Shown piece after piece: positions 35,144 through 56,815 of a stretch of 64,000 nucleotides of DNA; within the stretch, counting starts at the first letter, position 1, and each line of letters begins with the position of its first letter. The DNA is from an uncultured Candidatus Binatia bacterium (lineage in GTDB: Bacteria; Desulfobacterota; Binatia; Bin18). The notes beneath the pieces are model-generated. The model searched no databases, was not told the origin of the DNA, and saw nothing but the letters and a program-made list of their open reading frames with translations. Both the position numbers and the translations under genes were made by a program. The DNA lies in the NCBI GenBank assembly GCA_965214605.1, contig OZ243961.1, forward strand, positions 224,001 to 288,000. Reading direction: 5' to 3'.

Positions 35144-35154
35144 GGGGATCACCA

Positions 35155-39130: not shown

Positions 39131-39475
39131 ATGAGCAAAACTCAGCTGGACTTGATGCTGCCGATTCCGGTCAGGCGGGCTCTGCGCAAGCTTGGCCAGG
39201 ATATCCGTGATGCCAGGCTCAGGCGGCGCATCTCCATGGCTGTTATGGCAGAACGGGCCTCTATTAGTCGAACAACGCTGAACAAGATAGAAAAGGGTGA
39301 TCCCAGCGTTTCGCTCGGCAACTACGCCAATGTGCTCTTTGTTTTGGGTATGGCGGAACGATTGGGCGACCTGGCGGATGTCAGGACGGATGTGGTGGGT
39401 CTGGAGCTGGAAGAGGAACGCTTGCCGCAACGTATCCGCAAGCCGCGCCGGTCTGGACAGAAGAGCAAAACCTGA
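39131..39475 (+). CDS. XRE-family HTH antitoxin (HipB-like)
   Basis: LGQDIRDARLRRRIS...AERASISRTTLNKIEKGDPSVS; translationally coupled to hipA. Confidence 0.85.
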   Translation: MSKTQLDLMLPIPVRRALRKLGQDIRDARLRRRISMAVMAERASISRTTLNKIEKGDPSVSLGNYANVLFVLGMAERLGDLADVRTDVVGLELEEERLPQRIRKPRRSGQKSKT

Positions 39476-40731
39476 TGGAAACAGCAGTGCTTGTCTATGT
39501 GGAGATTGACGGCACGCCGCATCTGGCGGGACGCTTGTGGGCGCGCGTGCGTAAGGGCAGAGAAAGCGCCACCTTCGAATATGATGCGAGCTGGCTCGCA
39601 TATGCAAACCGTTTCGCTCTGGAACCGGCCCTCACGCTTGGCCCGGGCCCCTTTCATACCACGTCAGGTAGGCTCCTGTTTGGCACCATTGGCGACTCCG
39701 CCCCAGACCGCTGGGGTCGGGTTCTAATGCGTCGGGCTGAACGACGACGGGCTGAGCGTGTGGGTGAAACGCTACGCACTTTGATGGAAATCGACTATCT
39801 GCTTGGGGTTGATGATGAAGCCCGTCAGGGCGCCTTGCGCTTTGCCAGTCAGGAGGGAGGCCTGTTTCTTGCCGAACATGAAGCAGCACGCATACCGCCC
39901 CTGATTGATTTGCCACAACTGCTATCGGCAGCGGAACATGTCGTTGGTGATACGGATAGCGACGAGGATTTGCGCCTGCTGTTGGCCCCTGGCTCGTCAT
40001 TGGGTGGCGCGCGTCCCAAGGCTTCTGTTTGGGACCGGGACGGGCATCTTACCATTGCCAAGTTTCCACACAAGGATGACGAGATCAATGTGGTTCTCTG
40101 GGAAGGGGTTGCGCTGCGTCTTGCGGCAAAGTCCGGTATCCCCGTGCCCGACTGGCGAATTGAGTATGTGTTGAACAAGCCGGTACTGCTGTTGCGTCGT
40201 TTCGACCGAGTGCAGGGCGAGCGTATTCCAGTTCTTTCAGCCATGAGTATGCTCGGGGCCAGCGACAACGAGTCACGCAGTTATCTCGAGTTTGTTGATG
40301 CACTGCGCCGGTATGGTGCTGGCCCGGTCCGGGATATGCATGAGCTTTGGCGACGTATCGTTTTCAATATTCTGATTTCCAACACCGATGATCATTTACG
40401 TAATCACGCTTTCCTCTATACCGGTCCGGACGGCTGGCAATTGACCCCAGCCTATGATCTTAATCCGGTACCCACGGATATCAAACCACGCGTTCTGACA
40501 ACAGCCATTGATTTTGATGACGGCTCAGCCTCGCTGGACCTGGCGATGAGCGTGGTGGGATATTTTGAACTGAATGAAAACAAGGCACGCGCGATTGCCG
40601 CCGAAGTCGGGATGGCCGTGAGAACCTGGCGCGAAGAGGCCGCGCGACTGGGGTTGACGCAAGCCGAGATCAATCGCATGGCCTCGGCCTTTGAACATGA
40701 GGATTTGAAGGCGGCGCTTTCTCTTTCTTAA
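39475..40731 (+). CDS. hipA: HipA-family Ser/Thr kinase toxin
   Basis: DSAPDRWG, SSLGGARPKA, IAKFP, RRFDR, NTDDHLRN, PAYDLNP. Confidence 0.93.
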   Translation: METAVLVYVEIDGTPHLAGRLWARVRKGRESATFEYDASWLAYANRFALEPALTLGPGPFHTTSGRLLFGTIGDSAPDRWGRVLMRRAERRRAERVGETLRTLMEIDYLLGVDDEARQGALRFASQEGGLFLAEHEAARIPPLIDLPQLLSAAEHVVGDTDSDEDLRLLLAPGSSLGGARPKASVWDRDGHLTIAKFPHKDDEINVVLWEGVALRLAAKSGIPVPDWRIEYVLNKPVLLLRRFDRVQGERIPVLSAMSMLGASDNESRSYLEFVDALRRYGAGPVRDMHELWRRIVFNILISNTDDHLRNHAFLYTGPDGWQLTPAYDLNPVPTDIKPRVLTTAIDFDDGSASLDLAMSVVGYFELNENKARAIAAEVGMAVRTWREEAARLGLTQAEINRMASAFEHEDLKAALSLS

Positions 40732-40964: not shown

Positions 40965-43598
40965 ATGAGTCGATATTGTGGTGAGAAACGGCAGGTCGAA
41001 CCCATCCTGAAAGCAGCTGAGCACTGGAAAAATGTCGGGCTGTTATCGGAGGGGTCGGTATTCAATAAGGGGTCAATTTGGACATCTGAATATTTGGAAT
41101 CGCTGGATCACCATTTCGTTAATCAGTCTGACGCAGGAGAAGGGAATTTCTACGAAAAACTGGGGGCTCAGCTGGAGCCGACTGAGTCAGGAGTGAAGCA
41201 ACTCGCAGCAGAGATGCTGTGGTTAATGTTTCTTTGCCCTCTCAACATCAGCGAATCGAAGAAGCGCGAAGGCATAAAGAGTATCTGGGAATGGTCAGGA
41301 GAGGCGTTTCCAGAGGATTCCGAGTGGATAAGGGATGATGTTCTGGGTGGCGTAGGCAGCGGAGGAATAAATTTTAACACCAGTCGCCGGCAGGAGTTGG
41401 TGTTTTTTATTCGTGCCATGATTGCCTTCAAAATCCTGACAGACCAGGAACGAAATAAGCTCCTTGCCGATGGCTGGGCATTCGCGCAGTGGCTTGAACA
41501 AATCCCCGAATGCGACGCTCGTCAATTGCGTCATATGTTCCTGTTTTTGCTGTTCCCTGACGATTTTGAGCATATTTTCGGAGGGAGAGAGCGACGAAGA
41601 ATTGTCCGGGCCTTCTCAGGAAAGTCTGCGGCACAGGTCAGGAATCTCTCGGCATTAGAGATCGACCGAAACTTCCTTGAGATACGTAAGCAAAAGGAAG
41701 AGGAGTACGGTACTAAGAAGTTGGACTTTTATTATACCCCGCTTCGCGATCTCTGGGGTGACTCTAGGGTAAGGACGTGGCTGTTCAGTTGGAATTCGAG
41801 CAACTGGGAGTGGGAGTCTATGGCTGATGACCGGGCAGCGACACATGAAGGGAAAACGGTAACCCACCGATGGGGATGTGCCAGTCAAGATGCCAGTACC
41901 GGCGACAAAGCGTTTCTGGTGAGGACGGGCGAGCCTCCGAAAGGAATTATAGCTATTGGAAATATTGTTTCCGGTCCTTATGAGGCGCCTCATTGGGACG
42001 AGGCAAAGGCCGAGCAGGGCAAAGTATACCGGTACGTGGATGTGGGATTCTCACGGATTCAGGATCCACTGCAGAATGACCCTTATGTAACGGAAGCCGA
42101 TTTGGAGAGGATTGCTGTCGATAAGCAGGAATGGTCACCACAAGCTTCCGGTATCGAGATAAAGCAGCGATCGGCCGGGACTCTGGAGAAGGTCTGGGAG
42201 AAGGTCGTTGAGGCGGCAAAGCAGCCAGATGATAAAAAGCAGAATGGAAGTGTCAAGGCGGCCATAAACCAGATTCTGTATGGTCCTCCAGGAACAGGAA
42301 AGACCTATCAACTTAATCGTCTGGTGGAAAAGTATTCAAGCAGAAAGCAAACCCTAAGCCGTGAGGCATGGCTGATTCAGGAGTTGCCGGATGCCAGGTG
42401 GTTTGATGTGATCTTTGGCGCATTGTACGACCTGGGCGGTGAGGGCAGGGCCAATGCAATTTTAAATCATGAGTACGTACAGATGAAGGCGAAGGCCTTG
42501 GGGCGTGATCGAAACATCGCGCAAATAATATCGGCAACCCTTCGGGCACATACCCGTGAAAATTCCAGGACCGTCCCAGACAAGAACCGTAGTGCACCCC
42601 TTGTATTCGACAAGAAGTCAAATAGCGCTTGGTCACTGGTCGATGACTGGGAGGAAGAATGTGCAGAGCAGGTGGAACAAGCCAAGAAATGGAAGGCCGG
42701 TCCCAAGCAAGAGGCGTCCCATCAACGGTATGAATACGTGGCGTTTCATCAGGCCTATAGCTACGAAGATTTCGTCGAGGGTATGAGACCTGTTCAGGAT
42801 GAGGAAACCGGAGAGATCGCTTATCAGGTAGTGCCTGGTGTTTTTAAGCGGATATGCCAGAGGGCAAAAGCAGACCCCGATCAGCGGTACGCGATTTTTA
42901 TTGATGAGATCAACAGGGGGAACATTGCCAAAATATTTGGCGAGCTGATCACCTTGATGGAAGAAGATAAAAGGGCGGTATACAACGACGCCGGAGACCT
43001 GAAGTCTGGGATGGAATTGACTCTTCCTTATTCAGGCGCGCGATTTAGTGTCCCTGGAAATTTGGACGTCTACGGGACCATGAACACAGCGGACCGCTCC
43101 ATAGCCCTACTGGATACTGCGTTACGACGTCGTTTCCAATTCAAAGAGTTGATGCCGGATGCCGGCGTAATCAGCGGCTCCCGTGGTGACGGTTATATCG
43201 AGGATGGGGATGGCGGCGTTATCAACCTGCGTGCCTTACTGGAGGCCATGAATCGTCGTATTCGCTTCCTGTTGAACAGAGATATGACGATTGGGCATGC
43301 CTATTTCATCAACGTGCGTGATTTTGATGGTCTCAAGGTGGTTTTGTTCAACAAGATTATTCCCCTTCTGCAGGAATATTTCTATGAGGACTGGCACAGG
43401 ATCCAGTTGGTATTCCGAGATGTAGATCCGGCGGGAGAAAAACTGGAACCACAGATTGTATGTCATGACACGCTGAACAAAAAAGAGGTGCTTGGGGTCG
43501 ATCATGACGACTTCGACGACCTTACAGAGTACCGGATTGTAGACCCGGATGAGATCACGCCGGATGCAGTCAGGAAAGTATACGAAGAGAGTGCCTGA
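40965..43598 (+). CDS. mcrB: McrB-family GTPase with N-terminal and EVE-like recognition domains
   Basis: GPPGTGKT, FHQAYSYEDF, IDEINRGN, MNTADRS, LRRRF, IGHAYF, IIPLLQEYF. Confidence 0.9.
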   Translation: MSRYCGEKRQVEPILKAAEHWKNVGLLSEGSVFNKGSIWTSEYLESLDHHFVNQSDAGEGNFYEKLGAQLEPTESGVKQLAAEMLWLMFLCPLNISESKKREGIKSIWEWSGEAFPEDSEWIRDDVLGGVGSGGINFNTSRRQELVFFIRAMIAFKILTDQERNKLLADGWAFAQWLEQIPECDARQLRHMFLFLLFPDDFEHIFGGRERRRIVRAFSGKSAAQVRNLSALEIDRNFLEIRKQKEEEYGTKKLDFYYTPLRDLWGDSRVRTWLFSWNSSNWEWESMADDRAATHEGKTVTHRWGCASQDASTGDKAFLVRTGEPPKGIIAIGNIVSGPYEAPHWDEAKAEQGKVYRYVDVGFSRIQDPLQNDPYVTEADLERIAVDKQEWSPQASGIEIKQRSAGTLEKVWEKVVEAAKQPDDKKQNGSVKAAINQILYGPPGTGKTYQLNRLVEKYSSRKQTLSREAWLIQELPDARWFDVIFGALYDLGGEGRANAILNHEYVQMKAKALGRDRNIAQIISATLRAHTRENSRTVPDKNRSAPLVFDKKSNSAWSLVDDWEEECAEQVEQAKKWKAGPKQEASHQRYEYVAFHQAYSYEDFVEGMRPVQDEETGEIAYQVVPGVFKRICQRAKADPDQRYAIFIDEINRGNIAKIFGELITLMEEDKRAVYNDAGDLKSGMELTLPYSGARFSVPGNLDVYGTMNTADRSIALLDTALRRRFQFKELMPDAGVISGSRGDGYIEDGDGGVINLRALLEAMNRRIRFLLNRDMTIGHAYFINVRDFDGLKVVLFNKIIPLLQEYFYEDWHRIQLVFRDVDPAGEKLEPQIVCHDTLNKKEVLGVDHDDFDDLTEYRIVDPDEITPDAVRKVYEESA

Positions 43599-43600
43599 TT

Positions 43601-44854
43601 GTGGAGGTGCTGTCGGTAATCGAGCATGAATCTCTCCCAATTCTCCGATCTCGTGGACGAGGTCGGAGGGCGCTTGATCATGCGCATGCCGACGCACTCG
43701 ACGGACTTGAGAAAGAGCTGCCGGCAAAAGCGTGGTCTTGGGGGAATCGGCGAATCAAATTTGGGCACTATTGCGGCGTCATCTCATTGGGAAATTTATC
43801 TATAGAGATTCTTCCCAAGATTTACGGTGTTGAGGTTGACCTGGGGTCCAGCCGTCGTGCGCTGGTACGCATGCTTTCCAAGGCACGCCGCCTGAAGCTC
43901 CGTCGAGCGGGCACGGCTGGCATTGCGCTCCAGAAGCATAGTCTTCTGGATGTGTTCATACTGAATTTTTGCGACCAGCTGCATGCCGAGATGATGCAGG
44001 GGATGATTCGAACATACATAGAGCGCAACGAGAATCTCAACGTCTTACGTGGAAGATTACGAATTGAGCAGCAATTCAAGCAAAACCTGGCCCACCGTGA
44101 ACGGCTTTATTGTCAGTATGATGAGCTGAGCGAGGACAACATCCACAATCAGATATTGAAATATGTACTGAAATTATTGCTGAAAACGGCAATAGGAAAT
44201 CGTGCGCGTCTTCAGGTGTCTGAACTCCTCATGCGTTTTGACCCGATAAGCGATGTAGCCGTAGACACCGCTTTGCTGGATTCGCTGAGCTTTGATCGTT
44301 CAACTGCCAGATATGAGCCGATATTCGACCAATGCAGGCGCTTCCTGGAGGGCGTGCATCCGGATGTTCTGGCGGGAAAGGAAACCTGTGTTTCGCTCCT
44401 GTTTGATATGAACCAGCTGTTCGAGGCATACGTTGGTGCCGAATTAAGGAGGAAGGCATGGAGTGAGGGGCTGCGGGTAAGAGAGCAGGGCCCACAGAAG
44501 TATTTAGCCCGGCGTAAGGATACCGATCGGAATGTCTTCAGGATGAAGCCCGACATTTCCTTTTTGAACGAGAATAATCAGGTTGTAGCAATCGCGGATG
44601 CCAAGTGGAAACTGCTGGATGAAGAAGAAAGGAAGCTGAGAATATCTCAGGCCGATCTGTATCAACTGGAAAGTTACGCGATAAGGTATCGTGTTGAAGA
44701 ATTGTTTCTGATTTACCCCATGCAGCAGAAGATGACGATGCCGGTTCAGCTACATTTTAAGGGATCGGGAGCGACGGTGAATATTGTGCCTTTCGATATC
44801 ACGGCAGTCAGCAGTACCGAACTACCAAAGCTGTCCATAGGAGGAGGACATTGA
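43601..44854 (+). CDS. mcrB-associated mcrC: McrC-family restriction endonuclease subunit
   Basis: IEILPKI, LFDMNQLFEAYV, MKPDI...ADAKWK, ADLYQL; directly follows mcrB. Confidence 0.9.
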   Translation: MEVLSVIEHESLPILRSRGRGRRALDHAHADALDGLEKELPAKAWSWGNRRIKFGHYCGVISLGNLSIEILPKIYGVEVDLGSSRRALVRMLSKARRLKLRRAGTAGIALQKHSLLDVFILNFCDQLHAEMMQGMIRTYIERNENLNVLRGRLRIEQQFKQNLAHRERLYCQYDELSEDNIHNQILKYVLKLLLKTAIGNRARLQVSELLMRFDPISDVAVDTALLDSLSFDRSTARYEPIFDQCRRFLEGVHPDVLAGKETCVSLLFDMNQLFEAYVGAELRRKAWSEGLRVREQGPQKYLARRKDTDRNVFRMKPDISFLNENNQVVAIADAKWKLLDEEERKLRISQADLYQLESYAIRYRVEELFLIYPMQQKMTMPVQLHFKGSGATVNIVPFDITAVSSTELPKLSIGGGH

Positions 44855-46694: not shown

Positions 46695-47426
46695 TTAGTT
46701 CTTGAACCTGTTCAGGAGCCGGATCAGTTGCAGCTGGAGCGGTTGCGGAAAGGAGATCTGTCCATTCTGAAACTTCGTATAGCACCTCTCGAAGATCGCG
46801 ATGAAGTCGCTCCGCAGGGTCTGCGGCGTATGGTGCTCATAAAGGGCGCGCAACGTGGGGCCGTGACACGCACTGACTCTCAGGCCGCTCCCGCACGGGC
46901 ATTCATGATGGCCGCGATAGCCATGCTCGAAGAGAAAGCATATGGCACCGAGGGCCGCGAGGTCATCGTGCAGGCCGAGCGTATCGACGTAATGACGCAG
47001 AATGCCTTCATATCCGTGCGCCGCTTCGTCGAATGGGTGACGCCCGTGCTTTTTCCAGAAGCAGTACCCGTAGAGATAAGGAATCACCAGCCGATTGACG
47101 AATCCGAGCAGCGTAGGCTGGTCGAAGAACACTCGGCGCTGCTCGACCGGAACGGCAAGGCACAGCGTGCCGTCGGGATTGCGATGCTTATAGTTGGCCA
47201 CGATCCGGCCGCCTATTTCTTTGATCCGCGGCAGCGGCTCCGGAAAGCCGCGAGGGATTATCAATTCGATTTCGAACGATTCCGTGATCGTTTCCAGCCC
47301 GTTGGCGGACGCCTCGAAAGGCAGCGTGCCGGAAACGATTGTTTCGGCATCGCGTTCGACAATGTTTGTGAGTCCTTTGTGAACGCCCGACAGTTCGATG
47401 ATCTGCTGCCGCAAGTCTTCCTTCAC
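46695..47426 (-). CDS. Stand-alone prokaryotic E2 (UBC-fold) protein with C-terminal SEC-C zinc motif, CBASS accessory
   Basis: IELIIPRGFPEPLP...HRNPDGTLCL (E2 active site) and HECPCGSGLRVSACHG; GTG start overlaps the CD-NTase stop. Confidence 0.8.
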   Translation of the reverse strand: MKEDLRQQIIELSGVHKGLTNIVERDAETIVSGTLPFEASANGLETITESFEIELIIPRGFPEPLPRIKEIGGRIVANYKHRNPDGTLCLAVPVEQRRVFFDQPTLLGFVNRLVIPYLYGYCFWKKHGRHPFDEAAHGYEGILRHYVDTLGLHDDLAALGAICFLFEHGYRGHHECPCGSGLRVSACHGPTLRALYEHHTPQTLRSDFIAIFERCYTKFQNGQISFPQPLQLQLIRLLNRFKN

Positions 47427-48610
47427 ACCTGCCTCCACGGTTTCGCGGGGCTGGTGATATGAATGCGCGGCGGCGTGTCGATTACTGGAGCGGGCGGAAC
47501 AAGAACCTCAAGATGTTTCGATACGGCTGCGGCGCCCAAGACCCGGCCCAGGTGCTCTTTGAGCAGGCGCGGGTTTGCCTCGCCCAGGATGTTCAGCAGA
47601 TCCTTCTGTAGGGCATCCACCCACGCGAAGAAGGCCCGTGGGCGGGCATGGTTGTCTTCATGCCAGCGGTCCGCAAAGTTCTCGGCCGGATTGACGGGGT
47701 TGCCGATATACCACGTGCCGTCCGGGCGTCTCTGGATCAGCCTCATCGCTGCCAGGGAACGGTCGATAGTCTTGCCTTCGACGAGCGCTGCGTGCGCCTG
47801 GAGTTTTCCGATGATCCCGGAAAGAGCGGAATACACATCCGCCTCATTTCCGTAAAGATGCGCAGCCAGCGTGGTAATGATGATCGAGATCGGAGCGTAG
47901 TCGATACGGTCGGGGTGGTTGAAGCGCAGGTCCCGGTGTCGCTTCATGAGCTGGATCGAACGTTGAAGTGGTGTGCGGACCAACTGGTCGGGCACTTTGT
48001 CTATGCTCGAGTAGATCAGCGGTGCGCGGCGTTGGATATTCTGCTTCTGTTCGACGACCGCACGAGCGAAAGCCGCGTCATTCTTTCCGTCGAACCATGC
48101 CCCGTAGCCGCGCGGATCGCTTGCCGACCAGGAATAGGCGGAGCCGTTCTTGTTGGTGATCGCCAGCCCGCGCCCGTCCGGCACAGCGGGCAGAACGTCG
48201 AGATGAAAACCCACGCCGTCCTGCTCGGCGTATTCGAGCGTCCAGCAGCGCCGTCCTTCGAGGTCGAGCAGCTTCCGATAGGTTCCATGCTCCCAGAGCC
48301 GGTTGCCAACCATGGATTTGATCGCCTGGGGCAAGCTCTGATCCTTCCGCAACGGCATCTCGCACACGAGGTCGATGTCGTAGGATGCCTCGATCCCGTC
48401 GCGGATGGGCCTGACGACCGTTCCGAGCCGGAACGATCCTTGCGGATAGATGCTGAGTTCGCCGGAGCATCCCGGATATTCCCCCTGCTCAAGCCAGCGG
48501 CCGACCGCCTGATAGCGGTCCACCGCGTCCTGATACTTGCCGGGCGGGATGTCGATCTCGCTGGCGACCTGCTCCAGAAACTTCGAATACTTCGTGATAT
48601 CGACGGTCAT
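47423..48610 (-). CDS. CD-NTase (cGAS/DncV-like nucleotidyltransferase)
   Basis: YPQGSFRLGT, YDIDLV, FHLDVLPA, SDPRGYGAWF, TPLQRSIQLMKRHRD, PISIIITTL, NPVNPAENFADRW. Confidence 0.92.
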   Translation of the reverse strand: MTVDITKYSKFLEQVASEIDIPPGKYQDAVDRYQAVGRWLEQGEYPGCSGELSIYPQGSFRLGTVVRPIRDGIEASYDIDLVCEMPLRKDQSLPQAIKSMVGNRLWEHGTYRKLLDLEGRRCWTLEYAEQDGVGFHLDVLPAVPDGRGLAITNKNGSAYSWSASDPRGYGAWFDGKNDAAFARAVVEQKQNIQRRAPLIYSSIDKVPDQLVRTPLQRSIQLMKRHRDLRFNHPDRIDYAPISIIITTLAAHLYGNEADVYSALSGIIGKLQAHAALVEGKTIDRSLAAMRLIQRRPDGTWYIGNPVNPAENFADRWHEDNHARPRAFFAWVDALQKDLLNILGEANPRLLKEHLGRVLGAAAVSKHLEVLVPPAPVIDTPPRIHITSPAKPWRQV

Positions 48611-48645: not shown

Positions 48646-49647
48646 TTAGTTCAGCACATGGACCGGCGCGAACGCTTCCGCTGGCTGACTGAAAAACACG
48701 TGACCGAGAACCGGTTGCCGATCACGTGCCAAGGAAAAGCCCAGCCCCATTAGATCCTGGATGGCCCGTATGTCATCCATCTTGTAGGTGTTGTAAGGGA
48801 CGGTGGGATTGATTCGATGAATGGCCGTCCGCTCGTGTTCATGGCCGGTAAGCAGCTTGGCGATGCCCATTGCGCCGTGCGACTGCCCGTCCATGAAGAG
48901 CTTGATGATCTTGGAGCCAAGCGTCCCGATCCCTGCCCATTTTCGGATGGTGTAGGTCTCCTCCAGGCAACCGAGGCTGAGCACATGGAGTGATTCGCGC
49001 GGCCAGTCCAGCATCGTGATCGCTTCAACGACAGCCAGCGCCGTTGGGTTGTTCGCCCATGTCCCGCCATCGGTCAGGCCGACCGCATGTTGCGTAACAT
49101 GGTGGCGGAAGTACGTCGGCGCCGCGGCGGTCGCCAGCGCGGCATCGACCGCCAGGGACTTGTAGTCGTTGTGAAGACGCGTGTGGTGTGCGGTCTTGTA
49201 AATGTATACGGAGTGCGCGACCGGATTCCATGCGGGGATGAGCAAACGCGTTTTCGCATCGCCGATCCGTTTGCTGCCGAGCACGTCCTCTAGGACGGAC
49301 CGCAGCGGCGCGGTATCGTGTTTGTTCATGAACAGCCAACGCCCGAGTCGCAGCTTGCTGAAGACAAAATCTGAAACCGGCCCGTGTCCGTGCCCGAAGA
49401 TTTTCGGGCCGTGCCGTTCATAGAGATCAAGAAGCTTCGAGGCGCGCAGCCCCATCGCTAGGCCAAGGGCGCTGATCCCGCCGGTGGACGTGCCTGCGAT
49501 CAGGTCGAAATACGACCCGATCGGGTCTTGAAGATGCTTTTCAAGACTGGCCAGAAAGGCTGCTGGAAAAGTTCCCAGAATCCCGCCTCCGTCGATGCAC
49601 AGGATGCGGCGCTTGGGTTGCTGCGTTACTTTTTTGTTTTCCATCAT
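48646..49647 (-). CDS. CBASS patatin-like phospholipase effector (CapV/CapE-like)
   Basis: IDGGGILG, GTSTG, DGGTWANNP; first gene of the CD-NTase operon. Confidence 0.92.
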   Translation of the reverse strand: MMENKKVTQQPKRRILCIDGGGILGTFPAAFLASLEKHLQDPIGSYFDLIAGTSTGGISALGLAMGLRASKLLDLYERHGPKIFGHGHGPVSDFVFSKLRLGRWLFMNKHDTAPLRSVLEDVLGSKRIGDAKTRLLIPAWNPVAHSVYIYKTAHHTRLHNDYKSLAVDAALATAAAPTYFRHHVTQHAVGLTDGGTWANNPTALAVVEAITMLDWPRESLHVLSLGCLEETYTIRKWAGIGTLGSKIIKLFMDGQSHGAMGIAKLLTGHEHERTAIHRINPTVPYNTYKMDDIRAIQDLMGLGFSLARDRQPVLGHVFFSQPAEAFAPVHVLN

Positions 49648-49830: not shown

Positions 49831-49878
49831 GTTGTCTGTACAGACAACATATTTACAGATACATTTATCATCTGTCAA
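49831..49878. promoter_or_regulatory. Divergent promoter/operator region between CBASS and capH-capP
   Basis: Perfect 18-bp palindrome GTTGTCTGTACAGACAAC (49831-49848), ACAGAT-N9-ATCTGT (49855-49875), minus-strand TTGACA-17-TAAATA. Confidence 0.65.
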
Positions 49879-49888
49879 GAGGGCACTG

Positions 49889-50272
49889 ATGTCGTTCGGC
49901 TACGTTTTGAGAAAGTTCCGGGAAGACTGCAATCTCAGCCTCCGTGAGTTTGGTAAGCTCTGCAAAATCGACCATGCCTATATCCACCGGCTGGAAAAGA
50001 ATGAAAAGACCGCACCTTCCGAACAGGTCATTGAGTCGTTTATCCGTGCATTAGAACTGACGTCCAGGCAGGCGCACCTACTGCGGTTGCTGGTCGGCAA
50101 GACAGTGAACGAGCAGCTCGTGGACGTCTTTATCGAGGACGAAGCCCGCCCCCTGGAGCTGCTTGAACCTGCCTATCAAATGAGCTTCCGGGGTAAACGA
50201 CCGGAAACGAAGGATGAGTGGCGCCGGCATATTGACCGTTTGGCCGCGCTGTTTGATGAAGACGAGGAGTGA
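49889..50272 (+). CDS. XRE HTH repressor (CapH-like)
   Basis: MSFGYVLRKFRE...LSLREFGKLCKIDHAYIHRLEK; divergent from CBASS. Confidence 0.85.
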   Translation: MSFGYVLRKFREDCNLSLREFGKLCKIDHAYIHRLEKNEKTAPSEQVIESFIRALELTSRQAHLLRLLVGKTVNEQLVDVFIEDEARPLELLEPAYQMSFRGKRPETKDEWRRHIDRLAALFDEDEE

Positions 50273-51154
50273 ATGGACGAGTTCCAGACTATCCTCAAAG
50301 CCCGCCACTTCGTCCAAAATGCTGGCGTTACGGCGGTTCCGATCGAACTTGAGTGCCTGGCTGCCGCTGCGAACGCGAAGATCAAGCTCGTGTACGATTT
50401 GAGCGATAATGAGTCCGGCCAGACGACCCACCACAAAGGCAAGCACATCATTATCGTAAATGGGAATCACCGGGAAGAGCGGCAGCGCTTTACCGTCCTC
50501 CACGAGATTGCCCATATCGTTCTCGAACTCCCCTCACAGCATCATGACCCGAAGCTGATAACGGGAGCCCTCTTGTGTTGCGGGCGCCGCCCACAGGAAG
50601 AAATACTTTGCGATGTGTTTGCGGCGGAATGCTTACTGCCCTATGAGCTATTCAGCAAGGATGTCGGCGACGTTGATATCTCATTAGAAGCGGTGAAGGC
50701 ACTGGCGGACCGATACAAGGCGTCGCTCACCGCGACAGGTTCGCGCTATGCAATTAACGCACCTGAACCCTGTGCTTTTGTTCTGAGCGAAGACGGGCAT
50801 ATTCGCTATGTCTCGCGTTCGAAATTCCTGAACGAACTCAAGGGATGGATCGACTTCAACATCCCCGTTCCCAAGGGCAGCGTGGCGCACCGGCTTATTC
50901 AGGAAACATCGAAAAGTGAGGATTATGACGAACTGCCAACGTATATATGGTTTAACGGTGGCATCAAGAATCACCCGTTGCTGGCAGAAGAGGCCATTCT
51001 CCTGCCGAAGTGGAACCAGTGTCTCTCGCTCATCTGGTTTGACGAAAGCGCGAGAGCAGCGCTTGAGCGGAGAAACGAGGACGATGAGGACGAGCCGCTT
51101 CTCAAAGAGCTTGATGGCACACTCCCGTGGCCGTCCAAGAGCCGCCGAAGATAG
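50273..51154 (+). CDS. ImmA/IrrE-family metallopeptidase (CapP-like)
   Basis: RQRFTVLHEIAH, EILCDVFAAECLLP, YKASLTA; abuts the HTH gene. Confidence 0.88.
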   Translation: MDEFQTILKARHFVQNAGVTAVPIELECLAAAANAKIKLVYDLSDNESGQTTHHKGKHIIIVNGNHREERQRFTVLHEIAHIVLELPSQHHDPKLITGALLCCGRRPQEEILCDVFAAECLLPYELFSKDVGDVDISLEAVKALADRYKASLTATGSRYAINAPEPCAFVLSEDGHIRYVSRSKFLNELKGWIDFNIPVPKGSVAHRLIQETSKSEDYDELPTYIWFNGGIKNHPLLAEEAILLPKWNQCLSLIWFDESARAALERRNEDDEDEPLLKELDGTLPWPSKSRRR

Positions 51155-51239
51155 GGGACAGATGACAGACTTTCCGGTCGTTGACACTCATCACATTCGC
51201 CACCTCTATCATTGGCAGCCTTTTGTTCCCGATCGTCTC

Positions 51240-51960
51240 GTTACACTTCTGCGCTGTTCGGCTGGACCTTCTACGGCATCCTCTGGGATGTGCTGGTTGG
51301 CACCGGTATCGTCTTCCTGCCGTTTCCCAGTATCCTGATCGACAACTGGCGGGGATCGGCTGAGGGCGGGGAGTTTGGTACCGTCACCGGGCTCTCTCTG
51401 CGGCCTATGGAGCTGGAATTCTTCATGGCACTACTGATGGTGGTACTGGCCGGACAACCAGCCGCATTAACTCCACTCAATGCCGCTTCGCTCAACTACA
51501 CGCCACCACCGACACTGATCGATCCGACGTCCGCCACGACGCCCGTGGCCGCGCCCCAGAGCACCTACGGTTCAACCGGCTTCACCGGCTCGCCGGCGAC
51601 GGTGAACATCTCGGTGTGGTGGTATGCGGCGCTTTCGATGACCTCTGGATTCAACCATGCAGTGGTCGAAGGTCTCCCAAGTGCTGCGGACATACGTACC
51701 CATGAACAACAGGTGCGGCTGGTCACCATTGCCGACCCACGCCTGCGCCAGGACAGGACCGCTCTGGCGCAGGCGCCACCAACGTGGTCGAATGACGATC
51801 TCGTGGCACACAACTCCGGCAGCACCGGGCTAATGAGCACGGTGGAGAATGTCGCCAAAGGCGGTTTGGCATCGGGCGGCGTAGTGGCTGCGTCGGCGCT
51901 GTCCTCGGTCGCCATCTCTATGATGGTGACAGGCGCCATGGCCATACTTCGGGTGCCGAC
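51240..51960 (+). pseudogene. ICE TraG N-terminal-domain mating-pair protein, internally deleted remnant
   Basis: LFGWTFYGILWDVLVGTGIVFLPF...VWWYAALSMTSGFNHAVV...IADPRLRQ; no proper start. Confidence 0.65.
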
Positions 51961-51963
51961 TTT

Positions 51964-52975
51964 TCAGAATTTCCCATCCCGGACCACATTACCTTTCCTG
52001 ATTATCTTGACAGTTTTAGGATGAACTGGTCCGTTGTCCGGCAGCAGTCCTTTGCCTTTCTCAATCTCCTTTGCTGCGGGACTGGCCAGCTTGCCTGATG
52101 CGTCAGAACCGGCAAGCGCCTTGCCGTCACTGTAGTAGTCAAACCAGGGTAGCCTGGTACTCGTGTAATCATCGGCAGTTGGCGGCTTATGTGGCGGTTA
52201 GTGCTCTGTGATTGCCATATATTGCGCGCTATTGGCCAGGTGTATGAAGCACCGGAAACCGTTGTCTGGATCCCATGCATCAATGCCGTACTCGTCCTCG
52301 TAAATCTCCTGCCGCATCAAACCATCTGGAGCAAGCCCCATATCCAGGACAGCCGATTCGCAGACCGTGCGACTGAACATCGGCATCTCAAGGTAGTCCA
52401 GATCTGCTTCCACGGCTCGCTCAAAATGTTCGACGTACACGTCATGCTTCATCGGGTAGACGATAATCTGAAGACCTTCGTGTTCTGCCTTCCTGGTGAT
52501 CTGCTCTTCGGCTGTGAAGCCTTCACCCGGCGGCATGGCGACAAATTGCCGAATAAAGTCCTCCGAGATGTTGAAACCATCCAGCCAGGGCTGTTCCGGT
52601 ATCACCGCGCAGTCCTGCGGCGGATCACCGGAAAGAACATTGCTCCAGGATTCCCAGGAAACCGCATTGATCTTGCCAGCGGTAGTCTTGACGGCGCAGG
52701 GGTAGTCGCTAGAGAAATTGATCCATAGTGCCTCTGACTGATACATGGGTATGGAGACTCCACCATGTGTCCGCTAGGTATCAGGCAACTTGTTTGCAAA
52801 GTCATCCACGTGCTCCATCGGGAACCGACCCAGGCCGGGGGGGGGGGGGGGGAAGGGGATACTCCCGGTTGTCATCCGGGATCCGCAGGGTGCGCTGGAA
52901 GTCGATGCTACACACCGCTTTTTGGTGGACCTCTGGAAACCGGAAGGTCAGTTGGTTGTTCGGTAGTTCGATCAT
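51964..52975 (-). pseudogene. Conserved hypothetical protein, disrupted by a homopolymer frameshift and two in-frame stops
   Basis: MIELPNNQLTFRFPEVH...FQRTLRIPDD...YPLPP/GLGRFP...DT*RTHGG...MYQSEALW...EQPWLDGF...RQFVAMP...MRQEIYED...EH*PPHKPP...LPWFDYY...VVRDGKF. Confidence 0.75.
52837..52852. repeat. G16 homopolymer tract
   Basis: Sixteen consecutive G inside the pseudogene above. Confidence 0.9.
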
Positions 52976-52992
52976 TGTCTTACCTTCACAGA

Positions 52993-53388
52993 TTACCAGT
53001 CGCCATCACGGGCATCCTGGGCAATACGCAAAATGGCGTGATCCGGTGCGGATTTGAGCTGACGGATCAGGTCAGCGAACAGTTGCGGCCGTTTTCGGAT
53101 GATCTCCTGCAAATCCGACGATACCTTCCCAGCCATTGCCAGCAGCACATCCGGGTCTTCGCTGAATTCATCGGCCAATGCCCGGATTTTTGCCTCGGAC
53201 GGCGGCGCCACATCCCCTCGTTCTATCTTGCTGAGGTAGGCGGGTTCCACACCAATTCGCTGAGCGACCTGCCGGACGGAAAATCGCCGATCCTGTGATT
53301 TCAGGGCCTCGCGATGTTCACGGATGTATTCTCCGAATGTAATGTGTACTACATAGTATACATTACATCTAGATTCAAGACCCGCCAT
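52993..53388 (-). CDS. XRE-family HTH regulator (start uncertain: ATG 53388 or ATT 53343)
   Basis: TFGEYIREHRE...FSVRQVAQRIGVEPAYLSKIERGDVAPPSE...LLAMAGKVSSDL. Confidence 0.8.
   Translation of the reverse strand: MAGLESRCNVYYVVHITFGEYIREHREALKSQDRRFSVRQVAQRIGVEPAYLSKIERGDVAPPSEAKIRALADEFSEDPDVLLAMAGKVSSDLQEIIRKRPQLFADLIRQLKSAPDHAILRIAQDARDGDW
53337..53368. promoter_or_regulatory. 14-bp inverted repeat (one mismatch), probable operator of the XRE regulator
   Basis: ATGTAATGTGTACT-ACAT-AGTATACATTACAT overlaps the 5' end of the HTH gene. Confidence 0.6.
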
Positions 53389-53447
53389 CTCAACGCATTT
53401 TGGTGGCTCGGGGTTCGGTAAAGCCTGGGTGACAAGTGGTTTGTTGT

Positions 53448-53519
53448 GTTGTTCCACGTTGTACCGCTTCTCTTGACAAAGGGATGATGTCCATCTAAAT
53501 TGGTATAACGTGGAACAAC
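53448..53519 (+). promoter_or_regulatory. Sigma70 promoter bracketed by an 18-bp inverted repeat
   Basis: GTTGTTCCACGTTGTACC (53448-53465) and GGTATAACGTGGAACAAC (53502-53519) enclose TTGACA-17-TAAATT (53473-53501). Confidence 0.7.
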
Positions 53520-53549
53520 GATTGGCAAGTGTATCCAAAGGAGACGGCG

Positions 53550-55850
53550 ATGGTGAAACAACGATATTCAGCTTCAAAAACACGTTCCCAGGGTAGGAAT
53601 GCTTGGGCGGTGACCTTCCGCCACCCTGTTGTAAAGAAAGACCCACGCAGCAACAGCGGGATCAAGGTGAGAAGGGGGCTTGGAACCACGGACGCAGCGG
53701 AAGCAGACAAACTCGTCGACGAAATGAATGTTCTTCTCGGAGATGAATCGTATTGGAGCCTTAACCAGAAAGGACGGGCGGAACGTCAGTTTGCCAAAGT
53801 AATCGTCAATGGGTTCTATGATCCCATGGTAGCTGATGCACACTTCGATCCATGGAAGGCCAGGGATGAAGTAATCCCGATTCCATCTGCAGAAGACGGC
53901 TTCACCAAGGTGCTGTTCCTTGGGACCACCGGAGCGGGCAAGACATCACTGCTGAGGCTCATGATCGGCTCCCACCCGGAAAAGGATCGCTTCCCTTCGA
54001 CCTCCACTGGCAAGACCACTGTTTCGGATATCGAGGTTATTATTAGGGATCGTGGGGATTTCCAGGCTGTCGTGACCTTCCTTCCTGAAGGAACAGTGCG
54101 GACTTATACCCAGGAATCAATCGACGAGGCCTGCAAGGCCGTCTGGCGGGGTGAATCAGATGAGAAGGTCGTCAAGGAGTTGCTCAACCATAGAGATCAG
54201 CGCTTTCGGTTGGGCTATATCCTGGGGTCTTGGTCCGAGCAGGAGATTCAGGGAGACGATGACGACTGGGGTTTCGATAACGTAGAGGAGCATTCCGAAC
54301 CAGCATCTGAACAGGTCTCTGAAGAGGGTGCGTACCCATCGGCTGAAGAGCGCCGAGAAATACAGGAGAAACTTTCGGAGTATGCCAAGTGTATCAGAGA
54401 GATCGCAGAAGTCGCCAGAGCCAAGGTCTCGGAGGAATGGGGTAAAGATGTATCGCGCCTCAAGGACCTCAAGGGAGAGGAGCTCGACCTGGTATTGGGT
54501 TACTTTGAGGAAATCCTCGAAAAAATGCCCGGCTACGATGCGCTCATCGAAGACATCATCAATCAGGTTTTGAAACGGCCCGACTACCTGACAGCCGGTG
54601 AACTCAAGCGAAAGGGCAAATGGCCCGAGAGATGGACGTTCGAATCTGCCGATAGGGACGAGTTTATCAATCAAGTTCGCTGGTTTTCGAGCAACTATGC
54701 TCCAGCATTCGGGCGATTACTGACACCCTTGGTGCAAGGGGTGCGGGTTCGCGGTCCGTTTTTTGCCGAGGCGCTTGGCGAGACACAGGGTCTGGTGCTC
54801 ATGGACGGAGAAGGCTTGGGACATGTGTCCGAAACGGTTGCGAATGTATCCACGCACTTCACCAGTCGATACCAGATGGCCGATGTGATTCTCCTCGTGG
54901 ATAACGCCGAGCAACCCATGCAACCTTGGTCTCTTTCTGTAGTGCGTTCAGTTGCAACCAGTGGCCACCAGGACAAATTAGCCGTAGCGTTCACCCATTT
55001 CGATCAGGTAAAAGGCGTCAATTTCTCCGGCTTCGCAGATAGACGCGATCATGTTTTAACTTCGGTGAAGAACGCGCTTAGCAACATGCGCACAACGGTG
55101 GGCGATTCCGTGATCAATAGCATGGAAGGACATCTCTACAACCGGTGCTTCATGCTCGGTGCGCTGGACAAGCCTGCTTCAAAGATCCCGAAAAGGGTAT
55201 TTGGGCAACTCAGCGAGCTGGCGGATTTTTTCCGCAGTGCTATCGAGCCCTTCGAGCCGCCAGCAGCTGCTCCGATATACGATCCCGCGAGTCTGTCGCT
55301 TGCAGTCCAAGCGGCAACGCAGGAATTTCAATCGCTATGGAACGCCCGACTTGGTTACCAGTCTCAAGAGAGCGTCTCGAAGGAACACTGGACCCGTATC
55401 AAGGCGTTGACGAGGCGGGTTGCGAGGATGGGTGGTGTGGAGTACGACTACCTGAGACCGGTTGCAGAATTGATCGCCCGCCTTAGTGAAAGGATTTCCT
55501 GCTTTCTCGATAAACCCGTGCAGGGGGATCCCCATGGGCATAATGAAGAGGAAGAGTCCAAGGCGATCGGTGTCGTTCGCCGTGAGGTGTTCCAGTCCCT
55601 CCATTCGCTGGCGATGGAGCGATTGATCCAGGAGCGCTTAAGCGATTGGTCACGTGCATTCGAGCATGCTGGCAGAGAATCTTCTTATAGTCGTGCGCGT
55701 GATGTTCGCAATATCTACCAAACCGCTGCTCCGATATCTGGTATCGAGTCGACGCCGCAGTCTTCGGAGTTCTTGAGTAATGTTCGGGACTTGGTTTTTG
55801 ACGCGATCGAAAATGCTGGTGGGAAGATTATTACGGGGCGTGGTAGTTAA
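53550..55850 (+). CDS. Dynamin-like/TRAFAC P-loop GTPase with small basic N-terminal domain
   Basis: G1 GTTGAGKT, G2 STGKTT, G3 DGEG, G4 THFD, helical C-terminal half; AAGGAG RBS. Confidence 0.75.
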   Translation: MVKQRYSASKTRSQGRNAWAVTFRHPVVKKDPRSNSGIKVRRGLGTTDAAEADKLVDEMNVLLGDESYWSLNQKGRAERQFAKVIVNGFYDPMVADAHFDPWKARDEVIPIPSAEDGFTKVLFLGTTGAGKTSLLRLMIGSHPEKDRFPSTSTGKTTVSDIEVIIRDRGDFQAVVTFLPEGTVRTYTQESIDEACKAVWRGESDEKVVKELLNHRDQRFRLGYILGSWSEQEIQGDDDDWGFDNVEEHSEPASEQVSEEGAYPSAEERREIQEKLSEYAKCIREIAEVARAKVSEEWGKDVSRLKDLKGEELDLVLGYFEEILEKMPGYDALIEDIINQVLKRPDYLTAGELKRKGKWPERWTFESADRDEFINQVRWFSSNYAPAFGRLLTPLVQGVRVRGPFFAEALGETQGLVLMDGEGLGHVSETVANVSTHFTSRYQMADVILLVDNAEQPMQPWSLSVVRSVATSGHQDKLAVAFTHFDQVKGVNFSGFADRRDHVLTSVKNALSNMRTTVGDSVINSMEGHLYNRCFMLGALDKPASKIPKRVFGQLSELADFFRSAIEPFEPPAAAPIYDPASLSLAVQAATQEFQSLWNARLGYQSQESVSKEHWTRIKALTRRVARMGGVEYDYLRPVAELIARLSERISCFLDKPVQGDPHGHNEEEESKAIGVVRREVFQSLHSLAMERLIQERLSDWSRAFEHAGRESSYSRARDVRNIYQTAAPISGIESTPQSSEFLSNVRDLVFDAIENAGGKIITGRGS

Positions 55851-56080
55851 GGAAGTGAATTGTAGAGAGTAGAGTACGGTGACGTTCCAGCCCAGCTGAT
55901 GCGCTGGGTATGGGCGGGTGGTCGGAAGCTCAAAGGATTGCAAAAAAGAAGGCACTTTTTATCAGGTTTTTCAAATATGCTTATTAGATTCATATCCATC
56001 TCCTTTGTTCATTTTAAATGAACAAAGGAGATGGACAGATTGTCAAGCCCATAATCTTATTGTTGTGAAAGGTAATATAT

Positions 56081-56443
56081 ATGCTGCTATACGGGCCAGA
56101 GGTTAGAGAATATCTCAATACTGAGGGAAACAGTCCTTATACCAAATGGTTCGATCGTCTGAATGAAGCCGCTGCGGCCAAGGTGACGACGGCAGTCCAT
56201 CGAATGGAGCAGGGCAACCTCTCCAACGTGAGAGGTGTTGGTGACGGCGTCTGTGAGTACCGAATTGATTTTGGTCCCGGCTATCGGATATACTTTGGCA
56301 AGGATGGGGATCGGTTGGTGATATTGCTCGCGGGTGGTACCAAGAAGCGCCAGGACGCAGACATTGCCGCCGCAAAAGGGCATTGGCGCGACTATAAGCG
56401 CCAGAAACCCACCTCGGCGGTGCCGTGCGCCAACGGCGGCTGA
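56081..56443 (+). CDS. RelE/ParE-family toxin (addiction module killer protein)
   Basis: SPYTKWFDRL...GNLSNVRGVGDGVCEYRIDFGPGYRIYFGKDG...LLAGGTKKRQ. Confidence 0.88.
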   Translation: MLLYGPEVREYLNTEGNSPYTKWFDRLNEAAAAKVTTAVHRMEQGNLSNVRGVGDGVCEYRIDFGPGYRIYFGKDGDRLVILLAGGTKKRQDADIAAAKGHWRDYKRQKPTSAVPCANGG

Positions 56444-56464
56444 GCGGCCATTGGCGCGACTATA
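56381..56464 (+). repeat. 16-bp direct repeat CATTGGCGCGACTATA (56381-56396, 56449-56464)
   Basis: Exact duplication at the toxin 3' end, with similarity continuing for ~12 bp. Confidence 0.8.
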
Positions 56465-56488
56465 GCGCCGGAAACGGCAAGAGGTGAC

Positions 56489-56815
56489 ATGATGGCGTTG
56501 ACGAAGGATTTTAAGGATACCATTCAGGCGCGTGCCCAACGGGATCCGGCGTTTCGCAGGGCCCTGCTGCAAGAAGGGGTCGAATGCCTGCTCGCCGATG
56601 ATATCAATACCGGCAAGGCCGTGCTGCGTGACCATATCAACGCGACGGTGGGGTTTGAGGAACTCTCCCGGGTCTTCGACAAGTCGAGCAAGAGCCTCAG
56701 GGGCATGTTCGGGCCGAAAGGGAATCCCCAGGCGGGCAGCCTGTTTGCGGTGATCCATTACCTGCAGGAGCAGGAGGGCATCCACCTGGAAGTCAAGGCC
56801 CGGGAGGTGGCCTAG
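56489..56815 (+). CDS. HTH antitoxin/transcriptional regulator
   Basis: MALTKDFKDTIQARAQRDPAFR...LRDHINATVGFEEL...KSLRGMFGPKGNP, downstream of the toxin. Confidence 0.82.
   Translation: MMALTKDFKDTIQARAQRDPAFRRALLQEGVECLLADDINTGKAVLRDHINATVGFEELSRVFDKSSKSLRGMFGPKGNPQAGSLFAVIHYLQEQEGIHLEVKAREVA

Follow-up and report, generated by a model that had tools for sequence, protein, structure and literature searches.

GTPases of the dynamin superfamily are membrane remodellers, and several of them, such as Mx, IRG, Eleos and DynA, are also antiviral factors. In the bacterial dynamin-like proteins and mitofusins (BDLP, SynDLP, IniA, Campylobacter DLP1/2, MFN1/2 and Fzo1), a large G domain is both followed and interrupted by helical bundles. 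Here we analysed a 64,000-nt stretch of the genome of an uncultured Candidatus Binatia bacterium (contig OZ243961.1, positions 224,001 to 288,000; hereafter the window, numbered from its first nucleotide), in which a single gene (53550..55850, + strand) encodes a stand-alone GTPase of 766 amino acids (aa) predicted to be built alike. The gene is preceded by a promoter that lies between two pairs of short repeated sites (53448..53519). We consider it probable that the four sites, a sigma-70 promoter and the dynamin/mitofusin-like GTPase, with a DNA-binding head of the integrase-arm kind, make up a one-gene cassette that represses itself and most likely acts against phages.

The family of this GTPase shares conserved G1, switch threonines and G3 with the dynamin-like proteins and mitofusins. 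The window protein differs from them in being only 10-18% identical, in its G4 motif THFD, in a G domain split by an acidic loop and a helical insert, and in having a predicted sequence-specific DNA-binding head together with a dedicated operator. Our literature searches turned up no dynamin with a DNA-binding domain that reads a specific sequence or with an operator of its own. The full-text literature, including PMC7159879 and leaving subscription journals and preprint supplements out of reach, held no description of the family, of the sites or of DUF6538, a domain discussed below. The interferon-induced GTPases MxA and IRG/IIGP1 are structural neighbours of the window protein and immune effectors under tight expression control; they differ in that they are eukaryotic, are induced by signalling rather than self-repressed, have no DNA-binding domain and align through the G domain alone.

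Eleos ('Dynamins', LeoA/LeoBC) resembles the window gene in that its dynamin-like GTPases are encoded beside defence systems. According to the preprint that describes it, P-loop mutants of Eleos lose defence and the two-gene dynamin system co-localises with defence in 60% (Millman et al. 2022). An Eleos operon comprises two and in some cases three dynamin-like genes in a row, whereas the window has one gene with no conserved neighbour, and Eleos proteins are without a DNA-binding head, unlike the window protein. The window protein matched none of the Eleos models of PADLOC v2.0.0 at E<=0.1. With a single copy, no conserved neighbour in 80 loci and no model match, the gene is not an Eleos system.

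A promoter flanked by four conserved sites

The initial annotation of this DNA had reported an intact 766-aa open reading frame (ORF) and a TTGACA-17-TAAATT promoter inside an 18-bp inverted repeat with one mismatch, and both descriptions proved correct. The open frame at 53529..55850 (+ strand) counts 773 aa from a GTG start. The ATG at 53550, with which the starts of aligned homologues coincide, gives the 766-aa coding sequence (53550..55850), supported by the ORF list, translation, alignment, model and fold comparison described here. The putative ribosome-binding site GGAG (53540..53543), read from the sequence 6 nt upstream of this ATG, is also found after the last site in the consensus of loci with 11-bp-spaced sites.

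The repeat search returned two arms of 18 nt each (53448-53465 and 53502-53519), 94% complementary and with 36 nt between them. The repeat resolves into four 8-bp sites on the + strand: two copies of GTTGTWCC, the promoter, and two copies of GGWACAAC. The distal upstream site 1, GTTGTTCC (53448..53455), reaches 2.0 bits across 49 anchored loci, and site 2, GTTGTACC (53458..53465), assigned from the repeat and the layout of the same 49 loci, begins 10 bp after it. The -35 hexamer TTGACA (53473..53478) and the -10 hexamer TAAATT (53496..53501), separated by a 17-nt spacer, follow on the same strand. Together they make 10 of 12 matches to a sigma-70-like promoter and are the sole such match in 53250-56150, although one match in 2.9 kb is by itself not above chance (shuffles average 2.4). 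Site 3, GGTATAAC (53502..53509), is a degenerate inverted site that touches the -10 hexamer; the consensus is GGTACAAC or GGAACAAC, and it accounts for the sole mismatch of the repeat. Site 4, GGAACAAC (53512..53519), is an inverted site within the predicted transcribed leader; like site 3, it was found by the repeat search.

For 66 homologues (65 loci and the window), the upstream 200 bp were surveyed for this layout. The strict 7-mer GTTGTWC or its complement occurred 202 times, against a mean of 2.9 in 50 shuffles. At least one strict site was present in 59 of the 66 loci, forward sites stood 5' of reverse sites in 54, and exactly two forward followed by two reverse strict sites were found in 34. 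In the controls, a strict site was seen in 0/66 intragenic 200-bp stretches and in 2/61 stretches taken 1 kb upstream. When one mismatch per 8-mer was allowed, a forward pair followed by a reverse pair was present in 49 of the 66 loci, from many phyla; the repeat is therefore conserved upstream of homologues. Among these 49, the members of a pair are 10 bp apart in 26 loci and 11 bp apart in 23, with an identical tally for the upstream and the downstream pair; the distance between the inner sites ranges from 36 to 63 bp and is most often 50-52 bp. Between the two pairs, 48 of 49 loci have a TTGAC that follows site 2 at 6-10 bp and is itself followed 16-18 nt later by a -10-like hexamer, whose best match scores 3-5 of 6 in 47 of 48 loci. 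The third site most often begins 7 bp after the -10. In the window copy this gap is 0 bp, a value found in 3 of the 48 loci for which a -10 was scored. Its inner sites are separated by 44 bp, as in 3 of 49 loci.

The core positions of the sites reach 2 bits, and the spacers and the flank directly upstream of site 1 fall to about 0 bits; anchoring on the sites inflates the site scores and leaves the flat flanks unaffected. Because conservation drops so sharply just 5' of site 1 across the 49 anchored loci, the conserved cassette begins at site 1. The homologous proteins that carry the four-site layout are 35-50% identical across many phyla. At this level of identity neutral DNA would have lost all similarity, and the four sites are therefore evidently under selection. 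In the whole genome of 4,374,632 bases, the paired site GTTGTWCC-N2-3-GTTGTWCC is found a single time, at the GTPase promoter, and the reversed control pattern not at all, which indicates that the four sites are a private operator and not part of a regulon.

Several loci depart from the strict form. In L010 the four sites sit farther upstream, beyond the 200-bp stretch, and a Bradyrhizobium plasmid copy has all four. Loci without the strict motif carry variants in the same layout, namely GTGTTCC in L008, L028, L054 and L059, and ATTGTTCC or GATGTTCC in L043 and L049. The downstream pair is in direct rather than inverted orientation in L028 and L054. L026 (6777-6880) has four tandem GGAACAAC sites, 11 bp apart, 3' of the promoter, and L061 (7889-7916) has GTTGTTCC three times in tandem and lacks inverted sites.

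Co-occurrence of the sites and the N-terminal head

The N-terminal head of the GTPase (residues 1-100; 53550..53849, + strand) is the proposed reader of the four sites, on the grounds of models, Pfam, and structural and profile comparison. The head is not present in all homologues. Representatives of about 650 aa begin at query residue ~100, and in a 934-aa homologue (P0256) a Swt1-like HEPN domain stands in place of the head (E 8.3e-28). Eight loci in which the head is missing, cut or different (L032, L033, L037, L045, L071, L079 and two Rhodococcus plasmids) served as natural controls. None of the eight has a site pair within 1.5 kb upstream, whereas both pairs were found in four of four positive controls scanned identically. 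This contrast further supports self-regulation, and together with the conservation of the sites it supports the suggestion of the initial annotation that the protein may autoregulate through the repeat: self-repression by the GTPase head at its own promoter is strongly supported by comparison of sequences. Position 38, where the third strand begins, is occupied by arginine in 5 of 6 variant-site loci and in 2 of 49 standard-site loci, a covariation with the site variants that is suggestive only, as it comes from about five lineages that are not independent.

A different protein could in principle bind the sites, either a divergent XRE/CapH-like regulator or a host factor, with the head doing something else, such as binding invader nucleic acid. 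The XRE-family helix-turn-helix (HTH) gene that invites this explanation (52993-53388, minus strand; HTH_31 5.9e-11, PADLOC capH 5.9e-10) is divergent from the GTPase gene and lies 60 bp upstream of site 1, and a few other loci also have an HTH gene directly beside the GTPase gene. Such neighbours are, though, found in 5 of 77 loci, against four sites in 49 of 66; the sites travel with the GTPase gene across phyla with no other gene shared; they vanish where the head is missing; and the XRE gene has a separate palindrome of its own (53337-53368, with 15-bp arms at 53337-53351 and 53354-53368) within its first 17 codons. We therefore rejected the XRE neighbour as the reader of the sites, on its own palindrome and the rarity of HTH neighbours, and regard binding by any protein other than the GTPase as very unlikely. 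The same rarity, and the lack of an M78 peptidase adjoining the XRE gene, led us to reject a CapH/CapP-regulated operon.

Two Rhodococcus plasmids carry headless homologues of 672-684 aa without operator sites (L112:1500-4983 and L113:1385-4986), each at the end of an apparent operon of three or four genes for small proteins. Pfam returned nothing informative for the genes beside these copies. The headless homologues may represent a variant of the system that comprises several genes. An ASCH-like identity considered for the N-termini of Actinomycetota homologues (L071 and L079) was dropped, as it had no Pfam support at E<=0.001.

A possible resemblance of the head to integrase arm domains

Motif conservation was read from an alignment of 30 family members, in which the N-terminus is very conserved (F23-R-H-P26, R41, R42 and G43-L-G-T46). 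In the AlphaFold model of the whole protein (pLDDT 79.4, pTM 0.76), the head consists of strands at residues 8-12, 19-24 and 39-43, a helix at 49-64 and then two further helices, and a separate model of residues 1-105 (44 sequences, pLDDT 79.9) again has three strands and a helix. The arm-type domains of tyrosine recombinases, such as the N-domain of lambda Int and DUF6538, are built of a three-stranded sheet packed on a helix, an arrangement that the models predict for the head as well. DUF6538 (PF20172) gave weak matches in 15 of 44 N-termini, the best at E 0.0052 and below the cut-off; the N-terminus of the window protein had no DUF6538 match, and Pfam found no other DNA-binding family among the 44 heads. 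In a sample of 401 genomes of the phylum, DUF6538 was present in 24. Because 10 of 11 DUF6538-bearing ORFs also have Phage_integrase, the eleventh being cut by the locus end, DUF6538 is evidently an N-terminal domain of tyrosine recombinases.

When the heads were aligned by hhalign with 14 integrase DUF6538 N-termini, the match was in register (P 0.0017, probability 15%), with FRHP over FRxRxP and VRRGLGT-D-EA over EIRxSLRT-A. In the structural search, the best matches of the head (Z 5.7) were the three-strand-plus-helix capping domains of enolase-superfamily enzymes; the arm domain of lambda Int (1z1b) came at rank 29 with Z 3.8 and a root-mean-square deviation (rmsd) of 2.2 over 51 residues, and AP2 DNA-binding domains reached Z 3.6-3.7. 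Foldseek with the N-terminal model gave no match at E<=1e-3, and the ESM Atlas no usable match for residues 1-100. The window protein has no Phage_integrase match and thus no recombinase catalytic domain. The integrase-arm-like N-terminus read from the sequence at the outset is moderately supported, by the three strands and helix and by the weak DUF6538 matches, and kinship of the head with integrase arm domains is plausible rather than established.

Arm sites of recombinases are short and tandemly repeated at helical-turn spacing, as the proposed targets of the head are. The repeats could in principle be recombination sites, of arm or terminal type, that move the cassette and are read in trans by a DUF6538-type integrase, with the promoter between them by coincidence. 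The exact start of conservation at site 1, the weak likeness of the head to an integrase N-terminal domain and the insertion of the cassette in many unrelated contexts would fit such sites. The window sites, however, bracket about 70 bp of promoter rather than the gene or a core recombination site, no matching repeat was seen after the stop codon, and the fixed register with the -35 and -10 hexamers fits an operator. No integrase gene is conserved in the vicinity, one being an immediate neighbour in 1 of 77 loci, and PF20172 had no match in the window's genome or in 60 relatives, a search in which the control genomes were likewise silent. We regard it as very unlikely that the repeats are recombination sites.

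Predicted dynamin-like fold of the GTPase body

None of the Pfam, NCBIfam and PADLOC models matched the window protein significantly. The sub-threshold matches all fell on P-loop families (ABC_tran, MMR_HSR1, small_GTP, mad8 at 1.9e-4 and mad3 at 2.4e-3). Membership of MADS was rejected: the mad8 and mad3 matches are weak and confined to the P-loop region, and no mad genes were present among the window ORFs scanned.

The P-loop G1, GTTGAGKT (residues 125-132; 53922..53945, + strand), is invariant in 30 of 30 aligned sequences, as are the switch threonines T156/T157. The second half of the split G domain (54804..55004, + strand) extends in the alignment from G3, DGEG (419-422), to G4, THFD (482-485), with D419, G420, G422, H483, F484 and D485 invariant. 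All four GTPase motifs had been claimed for the protein; the invariance of G1 and G3 agrees with this claim, while G4 is non-canonical, with T482-H-F-D485 where [NT]KxD is usual. In the AlphaFold model, the G domain is interrupted by a disordered acidic insert (232-257) and a helical insert (265-346). A C-terminal helical region, residues ~548-755 (55191..55814, + strand), may form a stalk or bundle, judging from the secondary structure of the model and from BDLP and IniA alignments that reach 755-759.

Foldseek ranked SynDLP first (1.1e-6), followed by IniA, Campylobacter DLP1/2, BDLP and MFN1, with E-values up to 1e-3. In VIA, the window protein aligned with mitofusin-2 (MFN2; Z 18.7, rmsd 3.6 over 235 residues), SynDLP (Z 16.4), IniA (Z 16.1, across residues 116-758), BDLP (Z 15.7, 369 residues aligned, 116-755), MxA (Z 15.7) and IIGP1 (Z 14.8-15.3), and plain GTPases such as EF-Tu and Era reached a Z of about 14. 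Because Foldseek places bacterial dynamin-like proteins and mitofusins first and VIA aligns them at Z 15.7-18.7, assignment to the dynamin-like (BDLP/mitofusin) class is supported by the predicted fold, and not by sequence models. Dynamin_N had no match to the window protein at E<=0.1, and sequence searches of the PDB with full-length and N-terminal profiles returned P-loop similarity or nothing. The ESM Atlas search with the whole protein returned unnamed clusters and clusters named 'putative virulence effector SrfC' (Virul_Fac; score 0.93, 15 hits). Virul_Fac is absent from the Pfam matches of the window protein, and the SrfC clusters are a lead to a possible distant relative.

Distribution of the family

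The gene had been called an orphan, which is apt in that it has no partner gene and wrong in that the family is large. Of 7,998 candidates in a word-indexed search, at least 3,686 proteins scored E<=0.001. The 120 matches listed range from 636 to 797 aa in length and from 45 to 99% in identity, almost all of them match over the full length, and where they bear names these are 'hypothetical', 'GTPase domain-containing' or 'ATP-binding'. An exhaustive search of 50%-identity representatives gave 1,138 clusters at E<=0.001, of which 379 reached E<=1e-30. The family is present in Pseudomonadota, Cyanobacteriota, Chloroflexota, Bacillota, Actinomycetota, Acidobacteriota, Planctomycetota and others. 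In its own genome the gene is single-copy, and 2 of 60 related genomes, both of the same genus, have a homologue (45% and 34% identity), one of them broken by a stop. The comparison reveals a patchy distribution, indicative of horizontal spread.

Neighbouring genes of the homologues

For neighbourhood comparison we used 80 loci from one-genome-per-species contigs, which cover many phyla and one archaeal metagenome-assembled genome, and clustered their 1,038 ORFs together with the window by all-against-all BLAST. No conserved partner gene was found: the flanking genes differ between loci, and the largest non-GTPase cluster, of type I restriction subunits, is present in 8 of 80 loci. A multi-gene system with a lost partner was therefore rejected, as no neighbour cluster occurs in more than 8 loci, and apart from the weak mad8 and mad3 hits the protein matched no component of a named multi-gene system.

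When the 146 immediate neighbours of 77 loci were compared with Pfam, 17 loci proved to have members of families for defence or toxin-antitoxin systems, among them TIR, HEPN, Gp49, MqsR, HsdM (three loci), AbiEii, Z1 and NOV_C (three loci), as well as Schlafen/AlbA_2, CAP12-TIR, Fic and MrcB_N. Four loci have mobile-element genes directly beside the GTPase. We also scanned ORFs of 150 aa or more that lie up to three genes from the GTPase, leaving L080:5709-7292 out of 240. PADLOC models matched 47 of 239 ORFs at E<=1e-15, in 31 of 71 loci (44%), counted as matches of hidden Markov models rather than called systems and without a matched background.

In three betaproteobacterial loci (L038:10235-11704, L039:10235-11701 and L040:3435-4904), the GTPase stop codon is overlapped by the gene for a 490-aa protein with a SEC-C motif at its end, an overlap that suggests a lineage-specific two-gene operon.

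The defence island of the window

By its gene content, the window is a defence island. Pfam identifies a 1,127-aa protein with HEPN_Swt1 and DUF499 (35068-38451; N-terminal HEPN 5.7e-29), whose HEPN type is the one that replaces the head in homologue P0256, followed by a HipA kinase toxin gene (39475-40731), an McrB-like AAA_5 GTPase with an EVE domain (40965-43598) and McrC (43601-44854). A CBASS-like pair on the minus strand comprises a SMODS/DncV-like CD-NTase (47423-48610) and a patatin phospholipase (48646-49647). Divergent from it are an HTH_31 gene (49832-50272) and a Peptidase_M78 gene (50273-51154), so that this pair (49832-51154) adjoins the CBASS genes in the CapH/CapP regulator arrangement. 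A TraG_N fragment (51212-52024, TTG start) covers profile positions 6-160 of 462 and is a clear gene remnant. It is the one case checked that agrees with the initial description of many neighbours as pseudogenes; for McrBC, CBASS and HipA, the Pfam matches are clear and come from single ORFs.

Two ORFs of 57 and 182 aa without a family match come after the XRE gene on the minus strand (52198-53388 together with it), and the three may form a separate small system. The promoter region of the XRE gene abuts site 1 of the GTPase operator. On the other side, a HigB-like (RelE/ParE-family) toxin gene and a presumed antitoxin of 108 aa (56081-56815; toxin TIGR02683 4.7e-29 and Gp49, antitoxin without a family match) lie between the GTPase gene and dnaE (56948 onward). 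A Gp49 toxin is also encoded directly 3' of the GTPase gene in L007.

Discussion

From the conserved layout, we propose the following mechanism. The head would read GTTGTWCC, at sites 1 and 2, in tandem and one helical turn apart just 5' of the -35, and at the inverted sites 3 and 4, at or just after the -10 edge and over the transcript start. Because the members of each pair are one helical turn apart and the modal inner distance is about five turns, all four sites would lie on one face of the DNA. Proteins of the dynamin family associate with one another through their G domains and stalks, so an oligomer could hold all four heads on the promoter. Such an oligomer would occupy the four sites, clamp or loop the promoter and block RNA polymerase, and the gene would thereby keep its own level low. 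If the cassette serves defence, the GTPase body may be both sensor and mechanochemical effector, and release of the promoter would raise expression.

What the protein does once expressed is a separate matter, and we put the chance of a role in single-gene anti-phage defence at roughly even. This role is favoured by the genes around the homologues, by a distribution that is patchy and horizontal, and by the variant fused to HEPN. The same self-repressed, DNA-binding GTPase could instead repair membrane or envelope stress, like DynA and IniA, or serve a mobile element, for instance in partition with the four sites as a centromere. Among its structural neighbours, IniA, DynA-type BDLPs and mitofusins remodel membranes. 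In plasmid partition systems, centromere sites beside the NTPase gene, which also autoregulate it, are the rule; the family has 11 copies on plasmids, and some of its loci have integrase, IstB or TraG neighbours. Partition fits poorly, because 11 of 72,556 plasmid records carry the gene and most copies are chromosomal in unrelated contexts; the presence of homologues in 2 of 60 relatives speaks against housekeeping repair, and the 44% of loci with defence-model neighbours and the HEPN fusion, which points to conflict systems, speak against a role outside phage defence in general. We consider a non-phage role unlikely, though by no means negligible.

A number of observations count against the self-repressing anti-phage cassette as we have drawn it. 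Concerning the protein, Dynamin_N (PF00350) matches 5 of 30 members, with a best E of 2.8e-4 and none reaching the 27-bit cut-off, no effector domain is recognisable in the majority form, and the likeness of the head to integrases is weak, with Pfam matches below the cut-off, 15% in hhalign and a lambda Int Z of 3.8 behind generic folds at 5.7. Concerning its control, the window copy may be more loosely regulated, since its site 3 is degenerate and its inner sites are 44 bp apart, and the lineages behind the covariation of residue 38 are not independent. Concerning its role, 40 of 71 loci lack a PADLOC-model neighbour, which would equally suit a non-phage function, several copies sit among housekeeping genes (LeuRS, PurL, CoaBC, GroEL, cytochrome c1), and, beside the few plasmid copies, the family is found in 0 of 50,697 phage records.

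A further possibility, which we put forward tentatively, is that one polypeptide acts as transcription factor and immune machine. At rest, GTPase molecules bound at the four sites would keep their promoter clamped. A phage cue would set off GTP-dependent assembly that pulls the heads off the DNA, the resulting burst of expression would amplify itself, and the polymer would act on the invader or the membrane.

Whatever its role, this is a large family without a Pfam, NCBIfam or PADLOC model. Its 8-bp site is kept across phyla while the protein drifts to 35-50% identity, which makes for a clean regulatory unit with the headless variants as natural controls. If phage defence is not its job, the cassette would still be a new wiring of a mechanochemical GTPase to DNA. 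If it is, a one-gene defence system is currently missed by annotation pipelines, and should sensing and effector action indeed be joined in one polypeptide, the swappable N-terminus, be it a DNA-binding head, a HEPN RNase or none, would mark modular GTPase-centred immune sensors across more than 10 phyla.

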